A stretch of 64,000 nt of DNA from an uncultured Solirubrobacterales bacterium (GCA_963702875.1 OY969768.1:875876-939875); one strand, 5' to 3'; positions 21,391 to 45,670 are shown, numbered from the stretch's first letter. The notes: a model not told the origin generated them from the sequence alone. Made by a program: numbers and translations.

Positions 21391-21476
<86 letters not shown>

Positions 21477-21480
21477 CTGG

Positions 21481-23856: not shown

Positions 23857-24058
23857 CACGTAAGTCCGCCACTGCGGGTCGGGGTGTTAGCCAACGCGAC
23901 GCTTGGCATCGTTGCCCTGGCACCGGCCCGGCTCGACCGGTTGGTCGTGCTCGGTGGGACCACGAGCGCGGGCAGGACTACCCGAAAGCGATCCGATGGC
24001 GAATGCCCTCGATTGGGTGCCTTCATGTGCTTTCGACACCGGGAGCGTGCCGCGAGGA

Positions 24059-24616: not shown

Positions 24617-24741
24617 ATTCCATCGGCGCCGGGCTCAAGTCCGCGGGCGCCTCGAGCGCTCACCGGCTTCGGCCCACGCCTCTCGCGCGTGTGCATCTCG
24701 TCCAAAAAGGATGATTCCCAAACGCGTGGCCTTCCGCGATA

Positions 24742-25089
24742 TTGATCTCTATGGCGCAAGCGCCGAAACTGTTCGAACTCAACCGAGAAAGGCTCAACGT
24801 TCCGCCCGGGCTCATGTTGATCGGGGTTCTACTTGGGCCGGCATCATACTTTCCGCGCTCGACAAGCCGCAGTATCTGCTCAGCGCCGCGCTCTAGGGTG
24901 GTGTTGGTGGGCCCGAGCGATGCGCCCATGGAGTTCGAGTTGCCGGCGCGTCGGATGGCAGCGGTCGCGGTGGCAGGTGCGCTCTTGACCGCTCTGGGGT
25001 TTGGCATCGGTGCAGGCGCTTGGCGGATCGTCGCGCTGGCCACGTCGCTGGCAAGTACTCGTGATGCTGCCTCTGGGACGGCAACGTGA
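24742..25089 (+). pseudogene. N-terminal fragment of a FUSC-family membrane protein
   Basis: KLFELNRERLNVPPGLMLIGVLLG and AAVAVAGALLTALGFGIGAGAWRIVALA parallel KKVFEVKWQGFNLRRGAVLGVVLG and AAMAAAGALLTALGFGIGGGPWGFVVLA of the intact paralogue 28675..29772. It stops after ~115 aa. Confidence 0.5.
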
Positions 25090-26171
25090 GCGCTCATCCC
25101 GGCGATCCGAGCTTGCCGCGGTCAGCGGGGGCCAACGACCCCGCGAAGAACGGAACGCCGGTCGCGGATGAGACCGCGCCGAATGACACCTCGCCGCCGA
25201 GCGCCCCGCCGCCGGGCTCGAGAAGCCGGATCAGGCACGGTCTGTCAGAAGGGTGGCAGCTCGCGAAGATTGCCTATCGCGACCCCGAGCATGTCGCCGA
25301 GCGGATCGCGCTGCACAGCACGCAGAGCCTCGGCGAGCCATCTCTGGAGTGGGCACAGCGCGTCCGCAAGGAGCGTGAAGGTGTTCCGCGCGCGGTCATT
25401 GCCGAGCAGTTACGCACCGATAGCGCGAAGATCGCGGCGGTCGATGGGGCCGTCGCCGGGACGCCGTTCCTGGTCGCGCTGATCCCGGGCTATCTGGTGT
25501 ATCTCCGCCAGGAGGCGCGGATGCTGCTGCGCACCGCGGCGCTCTATGACCGCGACCCGCTGGCGCTCGAGACCGCCGCTGAGATGCTGGCGCTTCGCGG
25601 CGTGGACCCGTCGGTCGACGCGGCCCGCTCGGCCCTGCTCGCGGTGCGGGACACACCGCTGCCCGAGAAGCCGGTCGCGCGCCGCCCATGGCGTACGTGG
25701 GTCCGCGCCGTCTACGTGCTGCTGATCTACGGCGGGTTCGTCTCCGCCCCCTCCGACAAGAGCAAGGAGGGGGCCCATCCGTGGGTGAAGACAGGGCTCG
25801 GGTTCCTGACTTTTGCCATCTTCTGGGTCATCACCTGCGTGTTCCCGCTCACCTTCATAATCGCGATGGCCTGGGGTTGCGACAGCAGCGCGCGTGACCT
25901 TGGGCGGCGAGCGCTGATCTTTTACGACAGCGAGCCCGACAGCGCGCAAGCGGCGATCGCCGCCGCCAAACAGCAAAAGGACCTCGGACACAACAAGCGC
26001 CAGATCCTGCGGACCATACTGCTGGTCTTCTCTGTTGCGCTCCCGATCGCATTCGTCGCGTTCGTCGACCACGAGCGCCAGAGCACCGGCATCACCCCGC
26101 TCACCGCCGTCGGCGGCCTCGTCGCGCTCTCACTCGTGATCGCCACCGCCGTCATCGCCACCCGCCGCTAG
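25086..26171 (+). CDS. Hypothetical membrane protein with a Pro-rich N-terminus and several TM helices
   Basis: 361-aa ORF with coding-like composition and hydrophobic segments (FLVALIPGYLVYL, VYVLLIYGGFV, FLTFAIFWVITCVFPLTFIIAMAWG, ILLVFSVALPIAFVAFV). Confidence 0.55.
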   Translation: MSAHPGDPSLPRSAGANDPAKNGTPVADETAPNDTSPPSAPPPGSRSRIRHGLSEGWQLAKIAYRDPEHVAERIALHSTQSLGEPSLEWAQRVRKEREGVPRAVIAEQLRTDSAKIAAVDGAVAGTPFLVALIPGYLVYLRQEARMLLRTAALYDRDPLALETAAEMLALRGVDPSVDAARSALLAVRDTPLPEKPVARRPWRTWVRAVYVLLIYGGFVSAPSDKSKEGAHPWVKTGLGFLTFAIFWVITCVFPLTFIIAMAWGCDSSARDLGRRALIFYDSEPDSAQAAIAAAKQQKDLGHNKRQILRTILLVFSVALPIAFVAFVDHERQSTGITPLTAVGGLVALSLVIATAVIATRR

Positions 26172-26630
26172 GCGCGGCCCCTCGATATGACAGAGCGACC
26201 GAGCGTGGCTGCCACCGCAATCACGGGCTTCGGCCGGGGCAGCACCCAAGTGGGCGATGACCGGTTCCGGCGGCGGCGATGCCACCTGCCATAGGTTCCT
26301 CCCAACCCCCACTAAAAGAAGGGAGCGCCCGAACTGCCTAGGTTTCGCCGAGACTTGGTTGGTCGAGCGAGAAAGACACCGAAGGGCATGCACGACGTGA
26401 ACCAGCTACACGGGTTGGACGCCCCCACACTTGGGGCTCGCCTTGCTGGAGGCGAGGCGACCGACGAGCAGATCCGCTCCTCAAGGTTCGGGCCGAGTTT
26501 GACGATGAGCGACGCGGCGACATCCATACCAGAACGGAGAGCCGCGAGACCCGATCACGATCAGCGCGGCCTCGCCGGCGAGGAGACTCGCCAAGCTCCT
26601 TCAGGAGTTTTGCTTGCTCTTTTTCTTGGG

Positions 26631-27011
26631 TTATTCGTGGCGCCGGGCTCTGATCATTCGGCGACCGATCATGTCGCTGATCGAGGTCGCGATCCAGATG
26701 ATCAGGGTCGCGAACACGTACGTCTGAGCGCCATGAATCGCCAGCCCGCTGACGATCGCGTTGACGATGATCAATGCGACGATCGTCGAAGCGAGGGCCA
26801 GCAGTCCGGCCAGCGCTATCGACGGCTCATGAACCAGCACGCGAAGGGCGATCAGCTGAACCACAAGGTGAACGAGCCAGAAGATGAGGGTTGCCTCAAC
26901 GACAGCCGAAGTGTCGATCGAGAACTTGCTGAGCACCGCGCTCGAGACAAGGATCCCGACCGCGATACCGGCAAGCGAGCTAACGGCTCTGATCCCCCAG
27001 CGAGCCAACAT
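26631..27011 (-). CDS. Four-TM small membrane protein, resembling the phage-holin-4 / mycobacterial 4-TMS holin family
   Basis: 126 aa with four hydrophobic helices and a basic C-terminus (GRRMIRARRHE). Confidence 0.45.
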   Translation of the reverse strand: MLARWGIRAVSSLAGIAVGILVSSAVLSKFSIDTSAVVEATLIFWLVHLVVQLIALRVLVHEPSIALAGLLALASTIVALIIVNAIVSGLAIHGAQTYVFATLIIWIATSISDMIGRRMIRARRHE

Positions 27012-27032
27012 CGGCTGATCCTGACGAACGGG

Positions 27033-28511
27033 CTAGAGGCCCGTTTCGGCGGTGATCTTGCCGGATTTGACCGCCGCAGCCAGCTTCTGGTAGTCGCTTT
27101 CGTTCTGGTCGGCGTACGCCTTTGAGAACTCGACGATTGCACGGTCGAAGCTGTCGCCGTTGCCGAGGTACGCTGCGATCGCGATCCGGTCTCCGCTGCG
27201 CGCGTGCGCCCGGGCGAGCGTCCAGCCGCACAGCTTGCCGTAGGTGGCCATGCCCTTGGGGACCATCTGCTCGATTTCTGCCGAGCCCTTCCAGTCCTTC
27301 AGCTGCCGGCCGTAGAAGTCGCGCGCCTTGCCGTCCAACCCTGAGTCGATGTGCAGCCAGCCGAGGAAGATGTCGCTGCTGGCCTGCATCAATCGCTGGC
27401 CGACGACCACCCGCTCGCCGTGGTTTGAGAACTCGCTCGGGCCGAGGAATTCCTCCAGCACCGACGTCTCCGCCTCCTTCATCTGCAAGAACAACGGGTC
27501 CTGCCCATCACGGCCGAGCAGCAATGCAATATACGCCCGCGTGCCGACGCTCCCGACCCCGACCACCTTGCGCGCGAAGTCCATCAGCTCGAACTCCTCC
27601 AGCAGCACACGGCGATCGAACTCAAGCGTCTCCCGATAGCCGCGCAACAACTGGCGAAGCGCCTCGAACATCTGATCGCGCTCTCCGCCCTGGGCGAGCT
27701 GATCGATCGGCACGATCAGCGGCGACTGATCCACGATCCGTGCCTTCCCGTCGACGACCTCAGTCAGCTTCGAGAACGCCGCCATGCTGTCCTTCGTGCG
27801 AGCCTTCGCGAGATTCTTCTCGGTTCGCTTGACCATCTTCGGCTTGAACTGCGAACCGAACTCCTGGATCGCGCTGTCGACGTCCAGGTGCGAGTACCAC
27901 ACTTCGAGGGCCTTCATGCCGGCGAAGTTGGCCATCGCGGTGCGGTACTGCCCGACCGTGTCAAGCACGATCCGCTCCTGCTCCTTGTGGCGAAAACCGT
28001 TGGAGCGCGCCGCGATCAGCATGCTCACCGCGAGCCGCTTGACATCCCACTCCCACGGCCCCGGCAACGTCTCATCGAAATCGTTGACGTCGAACATCAA
28101 GCGCCGCTCCGGCGAGGCGAACACCCCGAAGTTCGACAGGTGCGCATCCCCGCAACACTGCACCGTCAACCCCGACCGCGGCGTCGACGAGAGATCATTG
28201 GCCATGATCAGCGCCGCCCCGCGATAAAACGTAAACGGCGAGACCAGCATCCGCCCGTAGCGGATCGGCACAAGCTCCGGCACACGCGTCTTCGCCTGAC
28301 GCTCCAACAACTTCACCGGATCAGGGCGACTCGCCGGCGCTTCGAACAGCGCATGATCCGCGCGCGGCACCTCAGCCCGCGCCGCCTTACCACGAGCAAC
28401 CCGCTCAGCCACCGACAAATGCGGAACCGCCGCGCTCTTCGGCTTCTTCCCTGGCGCGGCTGTCCCGCGCCTCGCAGCGGTCGTCCGTTTGCTTGAAGTT
28501 GTGGTCGCCAT
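27033..28511 (-). CDS. DUF2252-family protein
   Basis: ATG 28511 follows GGGAAGGAA. Contains ...LVPIRYGRMLVSPFTFYRGAA...CCGDAHLSNFG...DVNDFDETLPGPWEWDVKRLA..., as I recall for DUF2252. Confidence 0.6.
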   Translation of the reverse strand: MATTTSSKRTTAARRGTAAPGKKPKSAAVPHLSVAERVARGKAARAEVPRADHALFEAPASRPDPVKLLERQAKTRVPELVPIRYGRMLVSPFTFYRGAALIMANDLSSTPRSGLTVQCCGDAHLSNFGVFASPERRLMFDVNDFDETLPGPWEWDVKRLAVSMLIAARSNGFRHKEQERIVLDTVGQYRTAMANFAGMKALEVWYSHLDVDSAIQEFGSQFKPKMVKRTEKNLAKARTKDSMAAFSKLTEVVDGKARIVDQSPLIVPIDQLAQGGERDQMFEALRQLLRGYRETLEFDRRVLLEEFELMDFARKVVGVGSVGTRAYIALLLGRDGQDPLFLQMKEAETSVLEEFLGPSEFSNHGERVVVGQRLMQASSDIFLGWLHIDSGLDGKARDFYGRQLKDWKGSAEIEQMVPKGMATYGKLCGWTLARAHARSGDRIAIAAYLGNGDSFDRAIVEFSKAYADQNESDYQKLAAAVKSGKITAETGL

Positions 28512-28674
28512 CGCCGTTCGTTCCTTCCCTCGATCGGTTATCACAGCGGCGCGTGTCGCAGCCACCGATATTTCACAATTGTCGTATCAGGCTATGCTGC
28601 AGCGCGAGGCGGCGCATCGGCCAAAAAGGTTGAGATCACTCGCTGGCGCTCATCTGCAGGCCTCCTCGCCAGCG

Positions 28675-29772
28675 TCAGGCGGCGGTGCTGGCTTGTGGTG
28701 CTTGTGCAGGGACTTTGGCGGTGCGCTTTCGGAGTCGGTCTGCCAGGAACAGGACGATCACGGCGATCCCTACGCCGGCGAGCGTGAACAGGATCCTGCG
28801 TCCCTCGTCGGCAAGGTTGGATGGATGGGGCACGTCCATCGCGATAAGGAGGCCGGCGGCCACGGCTGCGGTGTACCAGGCGTAGTTAACGAAGCGGATC
28901 GAAGCAGCCACCGCGAACAGAACGACGACGATCACCTCGAGCGCGGTTCTGTTATCGACGGCCAGCAGGACGAGCGCAGCCACCGCGGCGCCCAGTACCG
29001 TCCCGACCACGCGCTGTACGGAAAAAAAGGTTGATTGCTGCAGGTCGGGCTTCATTGCAATGATGGCGGCGATGGGCATCCAGTAGGCGTTGGGCAGCTG
29101 CAGCCCGAAAGCGATCGCGACCGCGATCGACACCGCGACGGCGCGAATCACCGCAAAAAGGACTATCTGCCGGGTCAGCGGCCGCGGCGAGATATCCCCG
29201 GGGATCTCCGCGACAGGCTGCGGCGCCGCGACCCGCCCCCGCGCCAACCACATGATGAAGGTGTAAACGACCCACACTGCCGATCCGACGAGCCACGCCA
29301 GCGCCTGCTTCCACGGTTCGGTATGGGTCAAGCCGGAGCGGAAGGCGCCCGGATGGCCGAAGGCGATGAGCGTCGGCAGGCCGAGGACGAGAATGAACCA
29401 GATATTGAGGAGATGGGCCGCGACGAATCTGTGCAAGCCGTACTTCACCGCCAGCCCTCCGAGCAACGTGGCCACGAAAGCGGCCAGCACCACGAACCCC
29501 CACGGACCGCCGCCGATGCCGAACCCCAGGGCCGTCAGCAGTGCCCCGGCCGCGGCCATCGCAGCCATCCCCAGCACCCGGGGGCCGTATTTGCCGCCAG
29601 GGTCGCTGATGGCCACGAACAGCGCCCCGAAGAGTGCGCTAAGGAAGTACCTCCGCTCGTGCGGGAGGACGCCCACGACGATCATCAGCCCAAGCACGAC
29701 CCCCAACACGGCGCCTCTGCGCAGGTTGAATCCCTGCCACTTAACCTCGAACACTTTCTTTAGCTCGGTCAT
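28675..29772 (-). CDS. FUSC-family (fusaric-acid-resistance-like / aromatic acid exporter-like) membrane protein
   Basis: MTELKKVFEVKWQGFNLRRG...; about 10 TM segments. ATG 29772 was chosen over the ORF-track start at 29859. Confidence 0.6.
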   Translation of the reverse strand: MTELKKVFEVKWQGFNLRRGAVLGVVLGLMIVVGVLPHERRYFLSALFGALFVAISDPGGKYGPRVLGMAAMAAAGALLTALGFGIGGGPWGFVVLAAFVATLLGGLAVKYGLHRFVAAHLLNIWFILVLGLPTLIAFGHPGAFRSGLTHTEPWKQALAWLVGSAVWVVYTFIMWLARGRVAAPQPVAEIPGDISPRPLTRQIVLFAVIRAVAVSIAVAIAFGLQLPNAYWMPIAAIIAMKPDLQQSTFFSVQRVVGTVLGAAVAALVLLAVDNRTALEVIVVVLFAVAASIRFVNYAWYTAAVAAGLLIAMDVPHPSNLADEGRRILFTLAGVGIAVIVLFLADRLRKRTAKVPAQAPQASTAA

Positions 29773-30039
29773 ACTGTTCCTCTGTCTGTCTGGGGTGCTG
29801 CTGCGGCTGCTGTGGTGAGGCAGTCCGACCGGCGGGTTCCGGCTGCGTCCACCGGACACATCCTGTGCTCTTCCCGATGCCGATCTGAACCAAGCGGCGT
29901 GTCAGTGCGCGCACGCGTGGCGCTGGGAGGCGACCGCGTGATGGAGCCGTTGAAAGGTCTGAGAAACACGGTCGCCGCTTGTGTCGCTGCGGAGGGAGCC
30001 GGGGCGCTCTCACATCACCAAGCCAGCGGCCGCGCGAGA

Positions 30040-30729
30040 GCGCGCTGGCGAGAGCGGGCTGCTGCTAGGCGGGTAGCGCGTTGAGTTCCTTGGCGAGCTC
30101 CTTGCCGTCAGCGTCGATCTCCTTCTCCTGGGTCTTCTCAGCATGCGTCAGCGCCTTATCGAGCTGCTCCTGCAAGCGCGACTCACCGATCACGACCAGC
30201 GCCGCCTGGCCGGTATCGAGATAGTCGCCAAGCTCCTTAGCATCGCTACGCGACATACCACCCATCACATGCCCGATCCCCCCACCCGCCGCCGCACCAA
30301 CCACAGCCGCACCGAGGATCGCCGGCGGGAACACGATCCCCACCAACGCGCCAACCGCCGCACCCGTCCACGCGCCATGCTGCGTCGGCTTCTCGTGCTT
30401 GGTCACATGCACCTTACCGTCGTCGTCCTTGTACACCAACGCGACGTCATACGTGCCCACCAGATCAGCCGAATGCAGATCCAGCAACGTGTCGTAATCA
30501 GCATCAGCATCATCACGACCCGCATACACCGCCGCATACACAAACACAGGATTGTCCTTACTCATCGCCCTGCTCCTTTCCAATCATCCAAACCACAACA
30601 GCCACCACGGCAGCAGACAACACCCCGCTCGGGCCCAAACCTTCCCCGACGATGCCGCCACCGCCGCTACCAACAACCCTACGACCCCAAACCCCACCCC
30701 GCATCAGCCAAAAAGGATGAACCACACAC
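30040..30729. repeat. Copy A of a perfect 690-bp direct repeat
   Basis: Identical to 38778..39467 (offset 8738). Translations are identical in two frames on opposite strands, and I saw no mismatch in a line-by-line comparison. Confidence 0.9.
30065..30565 (-). CDS. DUF1269-like glycine-zipper membrane protein (copy A)
   Basis: MSKDNPVFVYAAVYAGRDDADADYDTLLDLH...GAAVGALVGIVFPPAILGAAVVGAAAGGGIGHV...; AAGGAG lies 7 nt before ATG 30565. Confidence 0.65.
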   Translation of the reverse strand: MSKDNPVFVYAAVYAGRDDADADYDTLLDLHSADLVGTYDVALVYKDDDGKVHVTKHEKPTQHGAWTGAAVGALVGIVFPPAILGAAVVGAAAGGGIGHVMGGMSRSDAKELGDYLDTGQAALVVIGESRLQEQLDKALTHAEKTQEKEIDADGKELAKELNALPA

Positions 30730-30878
30730 ACCCGCAAGGCCGCCTTGATGCAGCGCTGCGGTAGTTGCTCTGCTGGCCCCATGGTCGGTCACTCGGCCGC
30801 AAAGTGAGGCGCGAAATGGTAGCTGGCGAAGGCCCTCTCGACGCGCGACACCGAGCTTTCTACCTGGCAATCAGGCGG

Positions 30879-33245
30879 CTACGTTCGGGGTATGGCCGGT
30901 GAGCGAGGCATGTTGGGCGCTTCACCTTCGGACGAACCACGACGAACCGCATGATCCGTCAGCCAACGGCGATGCGGCAAGGCGACAGTCGGCATCTGGA
31001 CTGGCATCGTGGCCCTGGCTTCTGTCGATTCGAGGCCGGCCTGCTCAATGATCTCGACAGCGTCAGATCGGCCCGTGACGCCGAGCTTGACGTAGATAGA
31101 AGCGACGTGCGTCTTGACGGTCGGGCGCGCGAGGTGAAGCCGATCGGCGATGTCCTGGAGCGAAAGATGCGTCCGCAGGTAAGTCACGAGCCGGAGCTCG
31201 GCAGGCGTGAGTCCGTAGTCCTGGCCCCGCTTGATCCGCGCTTCGAGACGCTGTAACCGGGCCGGGAGCGTTCCGGCATCTGGGTACCCGTGGAGTGCGT
31301 CGTCCGCGATCTGCGCATGTTCGAGAGCGCCGACAACGTCACCGAGGTCGAGGCTGATGTCGGCGCAGCGCAGCGCGAGATCGGCGTTGAGCCACGGGCC
31401 CGTGCGGAGCAGTGGGCGCAGCCGCCGAACGTTCTCGAGCTGGCGCGCGGCCTCGGTCTGGTCACCGCGTTGGTTGTGCGCGAGCGCTCCCGCCGCGTAG
31501 CCGACGGCACCGTAAATTGTGTCGTGTAGGTGGTGCTGGCCGACCAGCCAGCCCGCTTCGATCGCCCATCGTTGCGCATCTCGCCGGTCGCCCACCTCGT
31601 TGGCCGCGAAGACGAGATAGCCGAGAGTGAAGACCCTCGTGTGGCTGAGATCGGGTCGGTCGCTCGAAATCGCCAGTGAATCTCGCAGCGCGTCGATTGC
31701 CTCGTGCGGTCGGCCCAGGAGAAGGTAAGCCGCGCCCATCGCGCGACGGGCGCTGAGGAGCCATCGAGTCCCCATCTTCTTCTCATACGCGTAGCCCAGC
31801 TCGGCATCACGCAGCATCTGCGGGATGCCGTCCGGCGCCATGGAGCTTCGGAGGTTGGCAAGTGCCGAGCGAAACGAAGACGCCCCGTCGGTGGATGCCA
31901 GAGGGAGCGGGGCCCGCTCGGCCGCAACCAAGAACCGCCTGGCCCGGGCCGCATCGCCAAGGTACCCGAAGACCCACGCAGCCGCGATAGCCAGCTGTGG
32001 ATCTGACTCGATCTCTCCGTCGGTGCAGCGGTTCAGCCACAACCGCAGACTTTCGATCTGTCCACGGCTGGCAAGCTCGTCCCGACACGCGAGAGCGATT
32101 CGGCCGGCGTGACCGAGATCGCCGCCCTCATGGGCGTAGGCGAACGCCTCGCCTGGCGATTCGTGTCGCTCACACCAATCTGCTGCCCGTCGGAGGTACA
32201 CGGGGAGGAGTTCCGGGTGGCCCCGCTTGAGCTCCGCGCGGAGGAGATCGCTGAACAGATGGTGGTAGCGATAGCGCTCGCGGTGATCGTCGAGCGAGAC
32301 CACGAAGGCATTGGAACGTGCGAGCTCCTCGAGCGAACGAGCCGCGTCGTCTGTGCCGAGCACGGCATCGCACAGGGGCGCGGTCATCTGATCGAGGATC
32401 GACGTCCCTAGCAGGAATCGCCTCAGATGATCCGGCTGGCGCTGCAGTACCTCTTCGACGAGGTAGTCGGCGATCTGCTGCTGATCGCCGGACAGGCCGG
32501 CGGCCTTCTCCGTGGCGTCGTCGCGGCCGCGCAGCGCCAGCGTGGCCAGCGCAACCGCGGCGGCCCATCCCTCCGTTCGCTCGCACAGGGCCTCGGCTGC
32601 CGCCTGTGACAGCTCCAGTCCTCGGCTCGCGGCCACATGACGGGTCTCCGTCGGATCCAGGGCAAGTAGCTCGCTCCCGATCTCCACCAGATCCCCACTT
32701 GCGCGCAGCCGGCCGAGCGGCACAACCGGATCGCCGCGCGTGACCAAGATCAACTGACAGCCGGATCGAACCTGATCGACTAGATGCGCGAGGATCGCAC
32801 GGCTCTCCCCAGCCGTTATGACATGTACATCGTCCAGCACCAGAACGAACGGATCGCGCTCGCCGAGGTCGGCCGCAAGGAGAGGAATGACAACTTCATC
32901 GATCCTGGGCATCCGTCCCGACAGCTCCTTCAGGAGTTCACTGCAAACCGGGCCAGTGCGCTCGAGGGCCGCCACTAAGCGGGCCAGCAGAACGACGGGG
33001 TCATTGTCGCGCGGGCCGAGCTGCACCCATGCGCTGGCCCTCGGATCCAGGTCACTCCACAGCGCGACAAGGGTCGACTTCCCGTAGCCGACCGGCGCAG
33101 AAACCAGCACCACCCGGCTGCGCTCGGCGACCGCCTGCAGCGAGGCGAGGCGAGGTCGGGCCACCGCCCGAGGCAGGACGGTCGGAACTCGACGCTTTGT
33201 CCGCGGCAACGGTGGCCTGGTCTCGGAAGACGCAACGCTACTCAT
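30879..33245 (-). CDS. Large ATP-binding LuxR-family (LAL/MalT-like) transcriptional regulator
   Basis: Walker A VSAPVGYGKSTLV, a long TPR-like middle region, and a C-terminal HTH LTPAELRLVTYLRTHLSLQDIADRLHLARPTVKTHVASIYVKLGV. ATG 33245 was chosen. Confidence 0.8.
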   Translation of the reverse strand: MSSVASSETRPPLPRTKRRVPTVLPRAVARPRLASLQAVAERSRVVLVSAPVGYGKSTLVALWSDLDPRASAWVQLGPRDNDPVVLLARLVAALERTGPVCSELLKELSGRMPRIDEVVIPLLAADLGERDPFVLVLDDVHVITAGESRAILAHLVDQVRSGCQLILVTRGDPVVPLGRLRASGDLVEIGSELLALDPTETRHVAASRGLELSQAAAEALCERTEGWAAAVALATLALRGRDDATEKAAGLSGDQQQIADYLVEEVLQRQPDHLRRFLLGTSILDQMTAPLCDAVLGTDDAARSLEELARSNAFVVSLDDHRERYRYHHLFSDLLRAELKRGHPELLPVYLRRAADWCERHESPGEAFAYAHEGGDLGHAGRIALACRDELASRGQIESLRLWLNRCTDGEIESDPQLAIAAAWVFGYLGDAARARRFLVAAERAPLPLASTDGASSFRSALANLRSSMAPDGIPQMLRDAELGYAYEKKMGTRWLLSARRAMGAAYLLLGRPHEAIDALRDSLAISSDRPDLSHTRVFTLGYLVFAANEVGDRRDAQRWAIEAGWLVGQHHLHDTIYGAVGYAAGALAHNQRGDQTEAARQLENVRRLRPLLRTGPWLNADLALRCADISLDLGDVVGALEHAQIADDALHGYPDAGTLPARLQRLEARIKRGQDYGLTPAELRLVTYLRTHLSLQDIADRLHLARPTVKTHVASIYVKLGVTGRSDAVEIIEQAGLESTEARATMPVQMPTVALPHRRWLTDHAVRRGSSEGEAPNMPRSPAIPRT

Positions 33246-33953
33246 CGTTCCGCCCTCGACGCCTCCCCGTTTCGCTGGCCAGAGCGACTTCGGGGCAGGC
33301 CCGCCACTCGCAGGTCTTAGACGCCGACATGAAGCCGCGGTGTCGGCGCAGGCGCGACCCGCACGCCACCTGGCGCTCAATCGTCTTGACGACAAACGCG
33401 CGCATGCCCATCGACGCGCTCTCATTCGGGGCCGCGCTCACAGTCGGGCGCGACCGCGCCAATATCTCGGACAAGTCGTCTCCTCTCGCGACCCAGGTCC
33501 CATTACCTAGTCTCAGCAAAGACGGTCCGCCGCATCAGGAGATGCCACTTCTCGCTGCCCAATCATCTGGACACCACCCAGCGTACCTGAGCCTGAAAGG
33601 CCGAGGATCCGTAAAAAACCCCGATAGAAACGGTGGAGAAGCTGCGGAGTCGGCGGGGCGTCGAACCGGCGCCGCGGCTCGGGCGCGATCGCGACCTATT
33701 CGCCCCTCAGAACGACCGGCGGTTGCCGGCAAACGGCTGCGGGCAAGCGCTTGCTCGAGTGGACCGAGGCGTCGCAGGCGACGACGACAACTTCCGGTCT
33801 ACCTCACGAGCGCCCACGGCGCCGCCGTGGGCCACCGGCTCAACTCAGGCGAGCGGGTTGTCACAGCGATATCAGCCAGATTGGCCGATAACGAATCGAC
33901 CGCCCGCGGCGTACCGTGACAGCACTATTACCGCCCAGCCGAAGCCGCCGAAC

Positions 33954-34325
33954 ATGAAGAAGTCACGTAAGACTGTTTCGTTGACGCCTGCCGAGACGCG
34001 CGTCCTGGCGCTCCTTACCACGTATCAAACGCTCGCTGGCATCGGCAGCCAGCTCGGCATCGCCCGTCCCACCGTGAAAACGCACGTCCAGAACATCTAC
34101 AAGAAACTCGGGGCCACCAAACGAGCCGAAGCAGTGAAGCTAGCTGAGAGCGCGGGCCTCCTGCCGGCCGGCGCCGGGCTGCTGAGCGGGAGGGATCCCG
34201 GGACGGCGTTGAGGCAGCGACGTGGGCTGCACGATCCGCGAAAGCGGGGCGGGCAGGTCGAAATCGAGCCGGAGACGGGCGAGCTCGACCGCTCATCGGT
34301 TGAGAGGAGTTGGGCGGGGAGATGA
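33954..34325 (+). CDS. Small GerE/LuxR-type HTH protein (stand-alone DNA-binding domain)
   Basis: MKKSRKTVSLTPAETRVLALLTTYQTLAGIGSQLGIARPTVKTHVQNIYKKLGATKRAEAV. The C-terminal tail is uncertain. Confidence 0.6.
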   Translation: MKKSRKTVSLTPAETRVLALLTTYQTLAGIGSQLGIARPTVKTHVQNIYKKLGATKRAEAVKLAESAGLLPAGAGLLSGRDPGTALRQRRGLHDPRKRGGQVEIEPETGELDRSSVERSWAGR

Positions 34326-35983
34326 CTTCCCAGGCGCATGTTCAACCGTCTGTGGGGGCGGGGGCCGCGGCAAAGAGCGCCGGCGCTGCGAAGATCGCCT
34401 TGATCACCCTGGCGGCCGGGCAGTTCGTGATGGCGCTGGACACGACGGTGATGAACACGGCGATCGCGACGGTCGCCAAGGACGTCGGAACGACGGTGAC
34501 CGGGATCCAGACCGCGATCACGCTCTACACGCTCGTGATGGCGTCGCTGATGATCACCGGCGGGAAGATTGGTCAGATGATCGGGCGCAAGCGCGCGTTC
34601 GCGATCGGATGCGTGATCTACGCCTGCGGCTCGTTGACCACCGCACTGTCGCATAGCCTGGTGGTGCTGATGTTCGGCTGGTCGTTCCTTGAGGGCTTGG
34701 GGGCGGTGCTGATCATGCCGGCGATCGTGGCGCTGGTGGCGTCGAATTTCGCAAAGCCCGAGCGTCCCCGCGCCTACGGGCTGGTCGCCGCTTCCGCCGC
34801 GATCGCCGCGGCACTCGGGCCGCTGATCGGCGGCATCTTCACCACGTACGCTTCGTGGCGATGGGTGTTCGTCGGGGAGGTGCTGATCGTGCTCGTCATC
34901 CTCGCCCTAGCCCGCCGCATGAACGACACGCCCGCGGAGGAGGGAGCCCGGCTGGATCTGGTCGGCACGGCTTTGTCCGCGCTCGGACTCGGTGCGATCG
35001 TGTTCGGGATCCTGAAGTCGGGGACATGGGGCTTCGTTAGATCGAAGCCGGACGCTCCGGAGTGGCTCGGACTCTCCCCCGTGATCTGGCTGATGTTCGC
35101 CGGTGCCCTGGTACTGGTCGGGTTCGTGTGGTGGGAGGGCCGGCGCATCAAGCGCGGCGAGGGCGTTCTGGTCGAACCCGCGATGTTGCGCAACCTCCAG
35201 CTCCGCAGCGGGGTCATGTCGTTCCTGTTCATGTTCCTGATCCAAGCCGGCATCTTCTTCACCGTCGCCCTGTTCCTGTCGGTCGCGCTCGGAATCTCGG
35301 CGGTCCAAACCGGCGTCCGGCTGCTGCCGCTCTCGCTCTCCCTGCTCCTGTTCGCCATCGGCGTCCCCAAGCTGCGTCCCAACGCGAACCCGCGGCGAGT
35401 CGTCCGCGTCGGCTTCATGCTGCTGTTCGCGGGTCTCGTCTTGCTGGTCGCGTTGCTCGACGTCGGCGTCGGCCCCGAGATCGTGACCTGGCCGCTGCTG
35501 CTCGCCGGCGCCGGCCTCGGCGCGATGGCCTCGCAGCTAGGCAGCGTGACCGTCTCAGCCGAGCCTGACGAGAAGAGCGGTGAGGTCGGCGGGCTCCAGA
35601 ACACCGGCACCCAGCTCGGCGCCTCGATCGGCACCGCCCTCGCAGGCGCCGTGCTCATCTCCGCGCTGACAGCGGCGTTCCTCGCCGGCATCCAGAACAA
35701 CCCCAACGTTCCCTCCAGCGTCGTCTCGAAGGCAAAGACGGAGCTCGCAAGCGGGGTGCCGTTCATGTCCGAGGCCGACGTCAAGGCCGCGCTCTCCAAG
35801 GCGAACGTGCCCGCCGCGACCGCCAACGAGATCATCAAGGTCAACAAGCAGAGCCAGATCGACGGGCTACGCACCGCGGAGGCCATCCTCGCACTCCTGG
35901 CGCTCATCGCCCTCCCGTTCACTCGAGGGATCCCGACCGTGCAACCCGGCGCCCAGACGAAACCCACGGCAGCGACCGGATAG
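34310..35983 (+). CDS. MFS transporter, DHA2 (EmrB/QacA-like, 14-TMS type)
   Basis: ~550 aa with many TM segments. LITLAAGQFVMALDTTVMNTAI and GGKIGQMIGRKRAF (motif-A-like). Alternative ATG at 34322. Confidence 0.8.
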   Translation: MGGEMTSQAHVQPSVGAGAAAKSAGAAKIALITLAAGQFVMALDTTVMNTAIATVAKDVGTTVTGIQTAITLYTLVMASLMITGGKIGQMIGRKRAFAIGCVIYACGSLTTALSHSLVVLMFGWSFLEGLGAVLIMPAIVALVASNFAKPERPRAYGLVAASAAIAAALGPLIGGIFTTYASWRWVFVGEVLIVLVILALARRMNDTPAEEGARLDLVGTALSALGLGAIVFGILKSGTWGFVRSKPDAPEWLGLSPVIWLMFAGALVLVGFVWWEGRRIKRGEGVLVEPAMLRNLQLRSGVMSFLFMFLIQAGIFFTVALFLSVALGISAVQTGVRLLPLSLSLLLFAIGVPKLRPNANPRRVVRVGFMLLFAGLVLLVALLDVGVGPEIVTWPLLLAGAGLGAMASQLGSVTVSAEPDEKSGEVGGLQNTGTQLGASIGTALAGAVLISALTAAFLAGIQNNPNVPSSVVSKAKTELASGVPFMSEADVKAALSKANVPAATANEIIKVNKQSQIDGLRTAEAILALLALIALPFTRGIPTVQPGAQTKPTAATG

Positions 35984-36028
35984 GTCACGATCGCTCAAGG
36001 GCACCGAGAGGTCTCGCACAGCACCAGC

Positions 36029-36619
36029 ATGCGGTCCCATCGCGCCACCGACTCGTTCACGGGACTCTCAATGTCGCAGGCCGCGCTCGAGTTCGCCTGT
36101 GCCCGCCACGCCAATCAGTACCGGGAGATCGACCACGCACCCTTCATCATCCATTCGATCGAGGTTGGATCGCTCCTGCACGGCGATGGGCAGCCAGACG
36201 AAGTCATCGCCGCCGGGTTGCTTCATGACCTGCTCGAGAAGACCCAAACCACGGGCGCGGAGCTTCAGCGCCGCTTCGGAGCCTCCATCGCCACGCTTGT
36301 CGAGTCGGTCTCAGACGATCCATCGATTGACGATTACGCGTCACGCAAGCACGAGCTACGCGATCGCATAGAGCGCGCCAGCTCCAGGACGGTCGCGATC
36401 TTCACCGCCGACAAGATCTCCAAAGTCCGGGAGCTCGCGCTCCTGCCAAGCTCGAGCCTTGACGAAACCACGACCCGCACCAAGCTCGCCCATTACCAGG
36501 AGAGCCTCAAGATGCTTCGCAGAGTTGCCGGGAAAAGCGCCCTCGTCGACCTTCTTGACGCCGAACTCAACCGGCTGCGGCGCAAGCAGTCACCAGAACT
36601 CGCTGACGGCGCAACCTAA
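36029..36619 (+). CDS. HD-domain protein resembling the SpoT/RelA hydrolase domain (small alarmone hydrolase-like)
   Basis: ARHANQYREIDHAPFIIHSIEVGSLL...EVIAAGLLHDLLEKTQTT...RFGASIATLVESVSD. Alternative start at 36071. Confidence 0.6.
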   Translation: MRSHRATDSFTGLSMSQAALEFACARHANQYREIDHAPFIIHSIEVGSLLHGDGQPDEVIAAGLLHDLLEKTQTTGAELQRRFGASIATLVESVSDDPSIDDYASRKHELRDRIERASSRTVAIFTADKISKVRELALLPSSSLDETTTRTKLAHYQESLKMLRRVAGKSALVDLLDAELNRLRRKQSPELADGAT

Positions 36620-36755
36620 GGCACTGCAGGCGCGAAGCGCATCAAGCCGCGAGCTCGCACAATCGGGACAGTCAGCGGGTCGTCTTCGGGCGCTGGCGGG
36701 ACGGTCCGTGTCTCGTGTCGGCTCCTGGAGGTGCCGCATGGACGGCGTTCGACCT

Positions 36756-37325
36756 TCAGCCGCTCGGCAGCGTGGCGGGGCCGCGCGTCCGGTGCTCGTG
36801 CATCGGTTTGCTTTCCATCACCGTGGGGCGCTTGTCCGCGGCGGTTCGGTACCAGTTGGCGTAACGACTCACCAGTGGCGCCGCCGAGAGCCCGTGCACG
36901 AGCACCGAGAGGCCGACCGTCAGGTAGGTGGCCGCGACGATGGTTGAGGCGTGAGCGAGATGAGCATCCTCGACCATCACCGCGAACACGATCGACGCGA
37001 GCCCACGTGGGCCGAACCAGCCGATGAACGCCACCGTCGGACCCAGCGCGTGAGTGCCCCAAAGCGAGATCGCCACCGGCAGCATCCGCACGATCGTCAA
37101 GCTGAGCACGGCATACAGCGCAATCTGCCAGCTCAAGTGCTCGAACACCGGGCCGAGCAGCACGGCACCGAAGACTAGGAGCGTGACGCTGTCAAGCGCC
37201 GCCCCGGTCTCCTCGGTGAAACGCATCATCGTTGCGAGGTTCTCGCGGGCGATGAGGCCGAACAGCGAGCCGGCAACGAACGCAGCGATGAACCCCGACC
37301 CCCCTAGGTCGACCGCGATCCCGTG
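36756..37325 (-). pseudogene. C-terminal fragment of a CPA1-type cation/proton antiporter
   Basis: ...GIAVDLGGSGFIAAFVAGSLFG...VAFIGWFGPRGLASIVFAVMV... Only the last TM helices are present. Coding-like sequence stops near 37325; upstream is Arg-rich noise. Confidence 0.55.
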
Positions 37326-37564
37326 CCGCGCGGATCGCCGCCTTAGCCGCCGTCGGTGCGCCTGCGGCGTCGTATCTTGTCCACGTCCGCCCTGCGATGG
37401 ATGCAGGTGTCACCGTGAAGCAGATCCAGGACATCCTGATTGCCGTCGCTCCGATCGTCGGCACGCCGCGTACTATGGACGCTGCCCTGAACGTCGCCGA
37501 GGCGCTGGGGATCGTCATCGCCGTACTCGAGGACGAACTCGAGGCTGAGGAGGAGGCGGAGTAG
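37322..37564 (+). pseudogene. C-terminal fragment of a carboxymuconolactone-decarboxylase (AhpD-like) family protein
   Basis: The in-frame reading ...ARIAALAAVGAPAASYLVHVRPAMDAGVTVKQIQDILIAVAPIVGTPRTMDAALNVAEALGIV...EEEAE with stop at 37562-37564 resembles the C-terminal half of CMD-family proteins. There is no N-terminal half. Confidence 0.45.
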
Positions 37565-37760
37565 GTCCTCGGAGCGCTCCCGCCGCTTGGCCTGATGGCG
37601 GCGTGCGCGGGGATCCCGACCACAGAGTCACGCACAGCACCAATCTCCCCGTGGTCGCTGCCGGGCTGGAGGACGCATTGGGCGTACCTCCGCGTACCTC
37701 CTCGCAACCCGGCTGGGCCGGTTCGGATCGAGCGGCTGTCTCGCGCGATCGCGCGAGGAT

Positions 37761-38240
37761 CTAGCGCCTGCGATCGCGTCGCCGCTCCCGCCGCCTCACC
37801 CCGCATACAGATACGGGCGAGAGCGGCCGGCCGAACGGGTCGATGAACAGTGTGACGGGCCCCGTCTCCGCCGGAACCGTGCCCTCGAGAGTCTCGATGG
37901 AGTAGGAGAGCTGGCCTCTCTCAAGACGCGGTTGCCGGATCACGACGACCGCGTCTTCGGGTGCTTTATCGCCGGGCTCGAGGAACGCCAGCACCGCGTT
38001 GGGCGGGTCTTCCTCGAAGCTGTTGTCCCCTTCGGCCCAGAGGTCGACGAAGTCCAAGGTGGTCATGTGTCCCACAACCCGTTTTGGGCGATCGGAGAAG
38101 TAGAGCGTCGATGGTGTGACCTCCCTCAGCGTCAGGGTCGTACCGTCGCTCGTCATGGCGTTCGCGGTCTGCACGAACATCGACTGCTCGGCCTGAAGCT
38201 GGTCAATCATCCGCTCGTCGGTCATCTGCTCGTCGCTCAT
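37761..38240 (-). CDS. Hypothetical protein
   Basis: 159-aa acidic ORF with coding-like composition (LYFSDRPKRVVGHMTTLDFVDLW); I recognise no family. Confidence 0.5.
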   Translation of the reverse strand: MSDEQMTDERMIDQLQAEQSMFVQTANAMTSDGTTLTLREVTPSTLYFSDRPKRVVGHMTTLDFVDLWAEGDNSFEEDPPNAVLAFLEPGDKAPEDAVVVIRQPRLERGQLSYSIETLEGTVPAETGPVTLFIDPFGRPLSPVSVCGVRRRERRRDRRR

Positions 38241-38349
38241 TTCAACCTTCCTTTGTCGTCTTCGGAGCCTGTGCGACCGCCATCCGACGCCGGTTACCCG
38301 AGCGATGGGGGCTCAAGCAACCGACGTTACCTGGCGGCACGGTGCGACC

Positions 38350-38526
38350 CTATGCAACCCCAGCGGCACGTGGAGTCGGGCCGATCAACGCGCCAATGAT
38401 CCAGAGGAACGGGAAGAAGAATCCGATCCAGAACATCCAGTAGTGCCCTTTGCGGAACGTTGTTAGCCCGAAATAGAGCCAGCATGCCACGTAGATGATG
38501 CCCAACAGAATCCAGAGGAATGTCAT
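38350..38526 (-). CDS. Small two-TM membrane protein (58 aa), below the ORF-track length cut-off
   Basis: MTFLWILLGIIYVACWLYFGLTTFRKGHYWMFWIGFFFPFLWIIGALIGPTPRAAGVA; locally lower GC. Confidence 0.45.
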   Translation of the reverse strand: MTFLWILLGIIYVACWLYFGLTTFRKGHYWMFWIGFFFPFLWIIGALIGPTPRAAGVA

Positions 38527-38777
38527 TTAGTCCACCGCCTTCGAGATAGGTCCCCGGGGCCGTCACTATCCCCGCGTTCTTCGTGTATGTGCCTTCCCCG
38601 CCAAGACTCCCACCCCGCGATCGTTATATGCAGCGTGTGAACCGGCGGTGTGACTCAGTAGTTCTCCGCCGGTGACGGTCCGCCGACCTGACCGCAGCTC
38701 AAACGTTCCCAGGTATCCAGTGCGCGCCCAATCCACCTCCACTGTCCGACCTCGAATCGTGGAGGGGCCACAGACCG

Positions 38778-39467
38778 GCGCGCTGGCGAGAGCGGGCTGC
38801 TGCTAGGCGGGTAGCGCGTTGAGTTCCTTGGCGAGCTCCTTGCCGTCAGCGTCGATCTCCTTCTCCTGGGTCTTCTCAGCATGCGTCAGCGCCTTATCGA
38901 GCTGCTCCTGCAAGCGCGACTCACCGATCACGACCAGCGCCGCCTGGCCGGTATCGAGATAGTCGCCAAGCTCCTTAGCATCGCTACGCGACATACCACC
39001 CATCACATGCCCGATCCCCCCACCCGCCGCCGCACCAACCACAGCCGCACCGAGGATCGCCGGCGGGAACACGATCCCCACCAACGCGCCAACCGCCGCA
39101 CCCGTCCACGCGCCATGCTGCGTCGGCTTCTCGTGCTTGGTCACATGCACCTTACCGTCGTCGTCCTTGTACACCAACGCGACGTCATACGTGCCCACCA
39201 GATCAGCCGAATGCAGATCCAGCAACGTGTCGTAATCAGCATCAGCATCATCACGACCCGCATACACCGCCGCATACACAAACACAGGATTGTCCTTACT
39301 CATCGCCCTGCTCCTTTCCAATCATCCAAACCACAACAGCCACCACGGCAGCAGACAACACCCCGCTCGGGCCCAAACCTTCCCCGACGATGCCGCCACC
39401 GCCGCTACCAACAACCCTACGACCCCAAACCCCACCCCGCATCAGCCAAAAAGGATGAACCACACAC
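38778..39467. repeat. Copy B of the perfect 690-bp direct repeat
   Basis: See 30040..30729. Confidence 0.9.
38803..39303 (-). CDS. DUF1269-like glycine-zipper membrane protein (copy B, identical to copy A)
   Basis: The 172-aa ORF-track translation is identical to that of 30065..30583. Confidence 0.65.
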   Translation of the reverse strand: MSKDNPVFVYAAVYAGRDDADADYDTLLDLHSADLVGTYDVALVYKDDDGKVHVTKHEKPTQHGAWTGAAVGALVGIVFPPAILGAAVVGAAAGGGIGHVMGGMSRSDAKELGDYLDTGQAALVVIGESRLQEQLDKALTHAEKTQEKEIDADGKELAKELNALPA

Positions 39468-40136
39468 CCCAAAAGCTGGAGGCGTGAAGGAGCAGTCGGT
39501 CAACCGCGATCAGTTGTCGGGCTCCGAGGCACTGGACGAGTCGCGGGAGTTCTGCTTCTCGGCGCGACGAACATAACGGCCGCGCCGGGCCCAGTCTCGC
39601 AATCCGCGAGAAGGTCGGCCCTTCTCGGAGCGTATTGCTCGCGCTCTCGCTGGCGGCGCCATGGGGTGGCAGTGATCACTGCAGAAGCGAGCAGCAGGCA
39701 TCGTGGCCGGCTGAGGATCATTCCAACGATAAGGTCGCGAAGAGGCTCGGATCGCGACGACGCCGGCGGTGAACTGAGGTTCATGAACCACCCGCCGTCG
39801 GGTCCGATGAGCAGCGCACCCACGAGATCCCCACCCAGGCCGGACCGGGCGCGGCCAGTGTGCTGGTTGCGATGCAAGGACCAAGAGACGCGGCACGTGG
39901 TCGCCGTGGGATCTCGCCGACTGTGCGAGATATAGCTGGGACGGCTCGACGTCAGACTTCCTCGCCGGCCTGACCCGGGCAGCAAGCACGACTGGGTGCG
40001 CGCCGCTCTCGACAAGCCCACGAGCACCCAGACCTAGATCTCCTCCTGAAAGCTCCGCTCTACGATCGGCCCTGCGCCGCCCCGGACGATCCGGTCTCGC
40101 GAGCCGGCGGTTTCACAAGAAGCTCACAGGATCTGC

Positions 40137-42962: not shown

Positions 42963-43712
42963 TTACGGGGCGGTGCCGGCGGGCCTAGGTCGCCTCTTGG
43001 CAGCGGCATGCGCGGTGGGCTGGGCGCGTACTCCTCCGGCGTCTGGGAGGGCGTCCAGCTCGGCTGCCAGTGCAGCGACGAGCGGAGAACCGGGGAGGCG
43101 CTCCTCAAGCATCGTGAGTGAAAGTCGGTAGTGCTTCAGCGTTCTGCTGCGGACCTTGATTCCCGAGCCGTCGCCGAGGCGAAGCTCGCGTAACTTTGAA
43201 ACCTTGTCGGCCGCGAACACGGTCAGCGCTTCGTCGCCGGCGCTGGCGACCTGCTCGCGCAGCGCGGCCTTGCGACGCGCGTAGCCGGGGATCCCCGGAT
43301 CGTGGCTGACCGCGCATACGATGTCGCCAACTCGGCGTCCGAACCGCGCGTAGATGTCGTACTCGGTCGTGTTGGTCTTCTCAAGCACGTCGTGCAACAC
43401 GCCCGCAGCGATCACCTCGTCGGCTGCTCGGGACTCGTAGAGCAACACCCCAACCTCGATCGGATGCACGATGAACGGCGCGCCGTCGACCGCACGATGC
43501 TGCCCCTGATGCAGCGCCTCGGCATACGCGAGCGCCGCCTGCGTCCTCGGCAGTCGCGCAGCAAACTCCGGGAGCCGATCCGCGCTGATCAAGGTTGGGA
43601 ACCATAACCACTCCGCAAACTGCGAGCAAATCCTCGCTCGCCGGGCTTGACGCGCGCCCGCGTCGATGTCTGGGGCGGCTTGGCAATCCCGCGCGATTCG
43701 CGCTGCCCACAT
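42963..43712 (-). CDS. Second HD-domain protein resembling the SpoT/RelA hydrolase domain
   Basis: YAEALHQGQHRAVDGAPFIVHPIEVGVLL...EVIAAGVLHDVLEKTNTT...RFGRRVGDIVCAVSHD. Start uncertain. Confidence 0.6.
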   Translation of the reverse strand: MWAARIARDCQAAPDIDAGARQARRARICSQFAEWLWFPTLISADRLPEFAARLPRTQAALAYAEALHQGQHRAVDGAPFIVHPIEVGVLLYESRAADEVIAAGVLHDVLEKTNTTEYDIYARFGRRVGDIVCAVSHDPGIPGYARRKAALREQVASAGDEALTVFAADKVSKLRELRLGDGSGIKVRSRTLKHYRLSLTMLEERLPGSPLVAALAAELDALPDAGGVRAQPTAHAAAKRRPRPAGTAP

Positions 43713-43911: not shown

Positions 43912-45670
43912 TCAGGGGCGCTCGACACCGCCGTCTGACTCGCCTCTGCTGCCCGATAGCAGCTTGCTCTCGTCTCGGTCCACTAGTTGCGCTTCGATCG
44001 CTCGATCGACGTTGCCGTGGATGTGGTCGACGCCGATTCGCTGGACCAGGCCGTCAGCCTGCAGCACCTTGAGCACGTTTGGTTTTAGGCGGGCTAGCCG
44101 CAGCGTGACGCCGTTGGTCTGGGCCGCGTCGGTGATTTCGGACAGTTTCGCCGCGCCCTGCGAGTCGACGAAATCGACCCCCTCCAGATCGAGCACGAGC
44201 GCGTCTGGCTGCCGCGCCTGATCGATCAGCTCGCGGACCCGTTCATCGAGCGCCTCCGCCGTAGCGAAGAACAAGCCGCCGTCGAGACGCAGCACCGCGA
44301 TCCCGGGGAACGTCTCGTCGCCGGGGTTCTCCTCGAGATCGCGGAACACCTGCGTCCCGGCCTCGCGACCTAGCACTGGCATCGGAGGCCGCGTGGCGAC
44401 GTAGATCAACCACCCCAGCGAAAGCACAACGCCGATCACGACACCCGCCAGCACGCCGGCTGACAGCACGCCCACGATCGCGGCGATCGCGACCCAGAAG
44501 TCAAACCGGGTCACGCCGTACAGACGACGCAGCTCGGCGAGATCGATCATCCCGAACACCACGGCGTCGATGATCACCGCTCCCAAGACCGCCTTCGGAA
44601 GATGCGAGAACAGGGGCGCGAGCACAATCAGCGTCGCGATCACGAGCGCGCCCGTCGTCAGCGACGCGACCGGGGTGCGCGCCCCCGCAGACTCGTTCAG
44701 CGAGCTGGCAGACAGGCTGGTCGATACCGGCATCCCCTGGAACACGCCGGCGCCGAGGTTCGCCATCCCCTGCGCGACGGACTCCTGGTTGACGTCGATG
44801 CGGTAGCGATGGCGAGTCGCAAACGCTCGCGCATCGCCCGCCGTTTGCGAAAAGCCGATCAGCAGCAAGGCGAACGCGGCGATCAGAATCGTCGCGTAAT
44901 GCTGGCGCATGAGCGTCAGATCCGGCAGCTGCGGTGCGGGGAGCCCGCGCGGCACGTGACCGACGAGCGCGACCCCGTGCGCTCCGAGGTCAAAGGCTGC
45001 CGAGGCCAACAGCCCGCCAACGACCAGGACGAGCGCGCCCGGGATTGCCGGCGCCAGGAATCGCAGACCGATGATCACCGAGCGAAATCACCGCCACGAG
45101 CACCGTCGTCCAATGCACATCACCGAGCGATGACACCCAGGTCGCGAGCTCTCGCCACGCGCTGTCCCCCTCCGAGGAGGTGCCAGTCAGCTTCGGCAAC
45201 TCCCCGATCACGACGTCGACGGCCGCTCCGGCGAGGAATCCCGTAACCACCGCTTTGGACAGAAACCGCGAGATCCACCCCATTCGGAACACCGCCAGCA
45301 AGAGGAACAAGAGCCCGGTCGCGAGCGTAATCGCGGCGACCAGCTGCGCTGCCTGCGGTCCTCCGACGCCGGTGACGAGCACCGCGCCTCCGGCCACCGC
45401 CGCCAGCGATGAGCTCGGCCCCGTCGAGATGTGACGCGAGGTGCAGAAGAGCGCGTAGATGATCGCGCCGGCCGCCGCCGCATAGAGACCGTTCTGGAGG
45501 GGCACGCCCGCGATTCCGGCATAGCCGAGGTTCTTGGGTACAACCAGAGCCGTGACGGCGACGCCCGCCATGAGGTCGCCGCGAAGCCATTTGCACTCGT
45601 ACCGGGGCAGCCAGCCTGCAGCCGGCAGAAAACGGGCCACGCCCCGGCGGTTGGCGTCATTGGTCACCAT
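43912..45670 (-). pseudogene. SulP-family anion permease with a C-terminal STAS domain, interrupted by one frameshift
   Basis: The N-terminal ORF (ATG 45670, ...LPRYECKWLRGDLMAGVAVTALVVPKNLGYAGIAG...) and the C-terminal ORF 43912..45078 (...STAS: IAVLRLDGGLFFATAE...DLEGVDFVDSQG) are in different frames. The junction is near 45075-45090. Confidence 0.75.

Follow-up and report, generated by a model that had tools for sequence, protein, structure and literature searches.

Positions 30040-30729 and 38778-39467 of a 64,000-nucleotide stretch of DNA from an uncultured Solirubrobacterales bacterium (GCA_963702875.1 OY969768.1:875876-939875; hereafter the window, meaning the whole stretch) are direct repeats of one another, each carrying a gene of the DUF1269 family. 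The two copies are identical at 690 of 690 positions, lie in the same orientation and are offset by 8738. The match is exact, since not one base can be added at either edge, and over the 200 bp beyond each edge the two sites are 26% identical, which is the random level. A separate repeat search ranked the same 30040/38778 pair first among the window's direct repeats, so both the perfect 690-bp repeats and the abrupt start and end of their identity, as described in the initial annotation, hold.

Each copy, read on the minus strand, consists of a 164-nt upstream leader, the DUF1269 gene and a 25-nt 3′ tail. In copy 1 (U1, 30040-30729) the coding sequence spans 30065-30565 and the G/T-rich leader, taken as the promoter region, 30566-30729; in the identical copy 2 (U2, 38778-39467) the coding sequence spans 38803-39303. 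The gene starts at an ATG at 30565 (39303 in U2), preceded by the ribosome-binding site GGAAAGGAG, ends with the stop codon at 30065 (38803) and encodes a glycine-zipper membrane protein of 166 amino acids. This product passes the Pfam gathering threshold for PF06897 (DUF1269; 37.5 bits, threshold 26.9) and also gives weaker, sub-threshold matches to glycine-zipper families, for example Gly-zipper_Omp (20.3 bits against 25). The family assignment given earlier is therefore correct, while the 172-residue open reading frame (ORF) on which it was based begins at an upstream TTG and is longer than the real gene. We know of no function for DUF1269 proteins. The domain has been described as a glycine-zipper hairpin within a ferredoxin-like, CutA1-like fold (preprint 10.1101/2024.07.07.602159). 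The ORF antisense to the gene was also considered as a gene and rejected: it has no Pfam match, and its frame is broken in about a third of the 43 homologous units that we compared across 30 genomes (the window and the assemblies of 29 relatives). Variation over these units tracks the sense frame (0.039, 0.015 and 0.136 at codon positions 1, 2 and 3), and the antisense frame is a by-product of high G+C rather than a gene.

Between the copies lies a cassette of regulator and transporter genes. Directly upstream of U1 is a LAL-type LuxR regulator (30879-33425, minus) with AAA_16, TPR and GerE matches and a partial match to MalT; the adjacency of this regulator and the unit is widely conserved. 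Then come a stand-alone helix-turn-helix protein of the GerE/LuxR type (33633-34325, plus), a DHA2-like MFS efflux transporter (34310-35983, plus; MFS_1 E=1.4e-41, TIGR00711 at 146.7 bits, below its cutoff) and a small HD_4 protein resembling RelA/SpoT hydrolases (36029-36619, plus). Family matches bear out each of these four genes as they were initially named. The two truncated genes reported next to them prove to be fragments of a Na+/H+ exchanger (36756-37325, minus), which retains the C-terminal 189 of 441 amino acids and is 95.8% identical to the full-length protein of the relative CAWJOS, and of a carboxymuconolactone decarboxylase (CMD) family gene (37326-37563, plus), of which the C-terminal part is left; both lack their 5′ ends and face away from one junction. 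Only one of the two small hypothetical genes is convincing, namely a 159-residue ORF without family match (O159; 37761-38240, minus). It is the conserved downstream partner of U2, and its adjacency to the unit is kept down to 60-70% amino acid identity. The conserved downstream partners of U1 are a FUSC_2/YccS-like membrane protein (28675-29859, minus) and, with it, a DUF2252 protein (27033-28565, minus).

Layout and copy identity in relatives

Scanning one genome for each bacterial species with the protein as guide found at least 80 loci with the unit, almost all in metagenome-assembled genomes (MAGs) of Solirubrobacterales, with proteins 65-97% identical. Several contigs hold at least two or three copies; copy numbers obtained in this way are lower bounds, and the single-copy status of a relative cannot be read from such collection scans. 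From 39469 to 23347 the window is collinear, at 82-93% nucleotide identity, with merged loci of CAWJOS, CAVOHJ, CAWIII and CAVTTU, each of which has two units, ordered and oriented as in the window, around the same LuxR, GerE, MFS and HD genes. CAWDJM (L044) also has both units, 7.4 kb apart. The two-copy layout is thus found in at least five other Solirubrobacterales species, on single long MAG contigs (0.25-1.0 Mb), and the copies there are 90.8% to 100% identical.

Our alignments run unbroken through both edges of U1, into the LuxR gene upstream and FUSC_2 downstream, and through the downstream edge of U2 into O159, where the flank (38777-37634) is collinear with relatives at 82-89%. Upstream of U2, about 150 bp (39475-39622) are conserved in CAWIII and CAWDJM. 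The whole block collinear with relatives extends over 23347-39622, and outside it there is no match in the compared loci at those positions. Since the same two copies occur in all these species while their orthologous flanks have diverged by 7-18%, the layout predates these species, and the two-copy arrangement is older than the split of several Solirubrobacterales species. The initial annotation had proposed that the repeats arose very recently by segmental duplication, or else by Campbell-type insertion, an origin that does not survive this comparison. The sharp edges of the repeats can be understood in the same framework. In all genomes paralogous similarity, which includes the leader, starts near GTGGTTCATCCTTTTTGG and fades 20-35 nt past the stop codon; as these limits are alike everywhere, the abrupt edges in the window fall about where the two loci stop being homologous, and so they mark approximately the limit of paralogous homology and not insertion junctions.

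Copies within one genome are often more alike than copies from different genomes. They are 100% identical in the window and in CAVOHJ, 99, 99 and 99% in CAWHMX, which has three, and 97.7% in CAVVNG, 95.0% in CAWDJM, 93.6% in CAVTTU, 92.9% in CAWGQT, 92.2% in CAWJOS, 90.8% in CAWIII, 88.9% in CAVYQU and 87.3% in CAWCDS, whereas between genomes the units have a median identity of 87.1% and a 95th percentile of 91.3%. Many copies in multi-copy genomes have as nearest neighbour the paralogue in the same genome and not the positional orthologue. This is clear in the window, CAVOHJ, CAWHMX, CAVVNG and CAWDJM, but the pattern is not present in every genome, as the values for CAWIII, CAVYQU and CAWCDS show. 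CAVOHJ has an exact repeat of its own, 716 bp long, with the copies 19,629 bp apart at orthologous sites and with ends slightly outside those in the window, which means that complete homogenisation arose independently at least twice.

Homogenisation extends to the non-coding leader, which is 97.6% identical within genomes and 78.1% between them, against 96.2% and 90.4% for the coding sequence; purifying selection is therefore not the explanation. In addition, the diverged pairs contain identical runs of 82-256 bp, beyond the permutation expectation (p<=0.0075 in six of eight such pairs). In CAWJOS, a good example of a mosaic, the two leaders differ at only four positions and share 134 identical bp in a row, whereas the genes differ in their 3′ half. 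An old layout, higher identity within than between genomes and mosaic pairs together make up the standard signature of concerted evolution by gene conversion.

Origin of the identical copies

We consider it highly probable, from these comparisons, that the repeats are the two members of an old paralogous pair, and that gene conversion keeps them identical. According to this explanation, a pair of DUF1269 units with their own leaders would have bracketed the regulator/exporter module before several Solirubrobacterales species diverged. Recently, non-reciprocal homologous recombination would have used one copy as template to overwrite the other across essentially the whole shared stretch, presumably by conversion of the RecA type, and the same process would run independently and repeatedly in related genomes, as concerted evolution. 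Some selective reason for keeping two copies may be supposed. The last conversion may have gone from U2 to U1, although the indication is weak: 14 sites separate U1-type from U2-type copies in four diverged genomes, and of these the window unit has the U2 state at 11 and the U1 state at 3, the last two bases being among the latter.

Several points weigh against this explanation or limit it. The diagnostic sites are few and their signal mixed, so that the hints they give of U2 as the main donor cannot carry a conclusion. Mosaicism was tested by permutation on the assumption that all parts of the unit change at the same rate. A classical conversion requires homologous sequence on the outside of its tract, while here the tract fills the whole shared segment; and just past the 3′ edge copy 2 is short of about 27 nt present in the U2 flank of relatives, so a non-homologous join or a small deletion may have concluded the last event. 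There was no contig of the same species among the matches listed in a protein-guided metagenome scan (best 95% amino acid identity). An exact look-up of the 166-residue product gave no record, and no metagenome contig matched an exact 27-mer that is specific to this lineage and lies in the MFS gene, halfway from one copy to the other. As no second genome of the species was found, the conversion is neither dated nor polarised.

The perfect identity of the window copies is moreover known from the assembly alone, and polishing may have erased a few true differences. A wider form of this doubt is that assembly or polishing collapsed slightly different copies to one consensus or misplaced one of them, as could happen with a 690-bp repeat that is longer than short reads; contigs of relatives from short-read metagenomes do break at unit edges (L081, L086). 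However, both window copies join unique flanks orthologous to those of relatives, and the layout is reproduced on the long MAG contigs, which makes an artefact unlikely as the cause of the layout. The independent exact repeat in CAVOHJ and the three 99% copies in CAWHMX likewise make a biological explanation much more likely than polishing, and overall we regard an artefact as improbable.

It is still harder to defend a second copy and a cassette that are new in this lineage, brought in by a recent segmental duplication or by a single Campbell-type crossover of a circle. Perfect identity and abrupt edges are what such an event would leave; the layout has exactly the Campbell topology, that of a circular LuxR-U-O159-CMD... 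module recombined with a chromosomal U-FUSC site, and the LuxR-U-O159 junction exists elsewhere (L011, L037, L082, L023, L041, L042). But the same copies and cassette stand between diverged flanks in other species, and an older event cannot explain 0% divergence. The cassette has no integrase, replication or transfer genes, and its composition matches the surroundings (G+C 63-69%, like the flanks). We therefore give a recent insertion very little credence. If a Campbell crossover is the source of the layout, it predates the divergence of these species. The corresponding empty site, in which a single unit would connect the U2 upstream flank with FUSC, was not seen among the relatives, where the poorly conserved U2 upstream flank would make it hard to recognise.

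The unit might also be a small mobile element or gene cassette that was inserted twice, in the manner of a composite transposon. It is multi-copy in many genomes and has differing neighbours in different genomes, and in CAWJOS an ORF with a DUF772 transposase domain (L005 8521-9204, minus) lies directly upstream of U2, where synteny with other genomes ends. The unit itself, however, contains no transposase, neither terminal inverted repeats (best 15/40) nor target-site duplications were found at its ends, and both copies occupy orthologous positions across species; of all the readings this one has the slightest chance of being right. The Pfam matches in the cassette are to regulators, transporters and a hydrolase, with none to a transposase, an integrase or a replication protein, and from 20.5 to 48 kb of the window neither an integrase nor a transposase was found. 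The composition does not change at the edges of the repeats. Both a transposon and the recent insertion of a plasmid or phage were rejected on these grounds together, namely the missing inverted repeats and target duplications, the lack of mobility genes and the uniform composition.

Maintenance of an old pair by gene conversion has well-known counterparts. Concerted evolution of tufA and tufB in Salmonella and Escherichia coli is RecA-dependent gene conversion, as earlier genetic work established. Conversion between bacterial paralogues is documented for these genes and for rrn operons (PMC5485169, PMC8022953), and for tufA/tufB the kinetics of conversion tracts have been described (PMC5485169). 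As in tufA/tufB, the paralogues here are near-identical within one chromosome while orthologues diverge, and tracts are hundreds of bp long. The tuf genes, however, are essential, highly expressed, far apart and inverted, whereas our case concerns a gene of unknown function in direct repeats 8.7-19.6 kb apart, with a homogenised non-coding leader and a putative role of RecA. The criterion by which concerted evolution was recognised in rrn operons (PMC8022953) and in 26 prokaryotic genes where it is long-lasting and recurrent (PMC6053082), that is, paralogues closer than orthologues and recurrence across lineages, is the same as here. Unlike that set, the time depth of our case is shallow (species at about 82-93% nucleotide identity) and does not reach hundreds of millions of years. 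Campbell integration, too, leaves one shared segment duplicated at both ends of the inserted DNA; in contrast to a recent integration, the present layout is common to several species with diverged flanks and the insert is without plasmid or phage functions, so that any Campbell event would be old and the present identity has another cause. What is new here is a clear multi-species case of a known process, in uncultured Thermoleophilia, among soil bacteria that have been little studied, that involves a non-coding leader and a gene of unknown function.

Leader, deletion and surroundings of the block

The most conserved block of the leader is CATCCTTTTTGG (30708-30719 in minus-strand reading; 39446-39457 in copy 2), which is nearly invariant and complementary to the Shine-Dalgarno region of the gene (AAAGGAG), at about 30572-30580. 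RNAalifold applied to 40 leaders gives a weak consensus structure (-12.15 kcal/mol, covariation term -0.37), and its main helix pairs the CATCCTTTTTGG block with the Shine-Dalgarno sequence; both partners are invariant and hence uninformative for covariation. On the plus strand the block reads GGATGAA (30715-30721), and the neighbouring regulator is MalT-like. This heptamer resembles what we take to be the MalT-box core, GGA(T/G)GA, and offers a lead only. Searches for known elements gave little: Rfam at E<=1 had no match in and around the unit, a sigma-70 scan of the leader gave no match to the consensus, a terminator scan produced a single terminator-like match, which is background level, and hairpins just 3′ of each copy are not more stable than in shuffled sequence (z = 0.42 and -0.47).

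The two gene remnants in the cassette have a separate history. At the window junction 37324/37325 relatives hold an extra 10.2-11.1 kb, with the rest of the CMD gene, a gluconolactonase, a glucose-dehydrogenase-like protein, a 1030-residue Fe-S flavoprotein, a 4Fe-4S protein (Fer4_11), a molybdopterin oxidoreductase and the N-terminal part of the Na+/H+ exchanger. The two sides are joined in the window at a 3-bp microhomology, ACG. This is an illegitimate deletion of about 10.5 kb, specific to the lineage of the window and unrelated to the repeats. It accounts for the missing 5′ ends of the CMD and exchanger genes and, as it lies within the cassette, for a spacer of 8 kb in the window against about 19 kb in relatives.

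The collinear block (23347-39622) has no fixed surroundings. Collinearity stops at both of its ends, and the flanks differ in every pairwise comparison of four relatives, so the block sits in a different genomic context in each species. On its left side in the window are a PIN protein (22255-22659), LexA (20505-21116) and a tRNA-Leu 1.9 kb away (21391-21477), to the right of which the G+C content at third codon positions falls from about 0.9 to 0.75-0.85. An old island or a plastic part of the accessory genome may account for these features. At 3.5 kb past copy 2 (42963-43712, minus) there is another gene for an HD_4 protein, whose product shares 49% identity with the one in the cassette. Several relatives have further HD and GerE copies that have diverged (L011, L037), a sign of older duplications of larger extent in the region.

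Some further features of the window touch neither the unit nor the cassette. A sulfate permease (Sulfate_transp and STAS; 43912-45754, minus) is split into two overlapping ORFs (43912-45078 and 44990-45754), likely because of a frameshift, a pseudogene or a sequencing error. A perfectly phased 24-bp tandem repeat of five consecutive units, neighbours being 90-98% identical, occupies 24431-24550 in the C-terminal part of a potassium-channel-like ORF (23903-24616), where relatives align poorly. Finally, the 220 bp at 6390-6609 are repeated directly at 7171-7390, 781 bp further on, with 71% identity; the two halves lie in adjacent ORFs of similar size (6203-7021 and 7011-7859) that are probably tandem paralogues.

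Gene orders and possible recombination through the unit

Three kinds of gene order are found around the unit. The order seen in the window, type A, is U2-O159-CMD...NaH-HD-MFS-GerE-LuxR-U1-FUSC-DUF2252. In type B1 one unit stands in LuxR-U-O159-FUSC-DUF2252 (L023, L041, L042; in L019 and L038 only U-O159-FUSC-DUF2252 is seen and the upstream side is not resolved), and in type B2 in LuxR-U-O159-CMD (L011, L037, L082). The trio LuxR-U-O159 also occurs in distant homologues at 60-70% amino acid identity (L149, L152) and is probably the ancestral neighbourhood. CAWHMX stands apart, for its three copies are in a scrambled and partly inverted order. Two of them are divergent and 5 kb apart (CAWHMX010000008.1, about 277-296 kb; L035/L036/L037), and compared with the window the genes around them have been inverted and put in another order, which suggests inversions and translocations through the unit.

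On paper, types A, B1 and B2 can be converted into one another by crossovers within the unit. Judged by topology, type A would formally be the product of a single within-unit crossover in which a circular B2-type module recombines with a chromosomal U-FUSC site, and a circle or tandem array derived from type A would contain the B2 junction. A perfect direct repeat of 690 bp is far above the minimal length for efficient homologous recombination, so deletion or amplification of 30730-38777 should occur at some frequency. The repeats are thus a plausible substrate for loop-out or amplification of the regulator/efflux module, which is mechanistically sound. The unit does lie at rearrangement junctions in relatives, consistent with recombination through the repeats. 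In Streptomyces, type II amplifiable units of DNA (AUDs) are segments between direct repeats of about 1 kb that amplify and are deleted by recombination. The resemblance is that of an actinobacterial segment between direct repeats of about 0.7 kb, each a complete gene; unlike with the AUDs, no amplification, change of copy number or deletion product was seen, and the junction types in relatives are compatible with such events without proving them.

A more far-reaching and rather doubtful idea is that the DUF1269 unit serves as a portable homology handle, through which crossovers would excise, re-insert, invert or amplify the LuxR/GerE/MFS/HD module, with or without its redox genes, while conversion keeps the handles identical. 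If this were true, the LuxR-U-O159-CMD and LuxR-U-O159-FUSC junctions, the three-copy locus of CAWHMX and the species-specific contexts of the block would be footprints of crossovers, and the module would resemble a Streptomyces-type amplifiable unit.

Among short metagenome contigs with close homologues (L081, L084-L087; 1-1.8 kb, from short reads), L086 starts at the first base of the unit and L081 inside it, which is what a unit present in several near-identical copies in those populations would give.

For genome scans the locus is cautionary: a perfect, sharp-edged repeat resembles a fresh insertion, yet here the comparison with relatives shows an old pair that has been homogenised again and again. 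For these organisms the unit matters for the assembly of their genomes, since short-read contigs break at it, and possibly for plasticity in the copy number of the module that it brackets.

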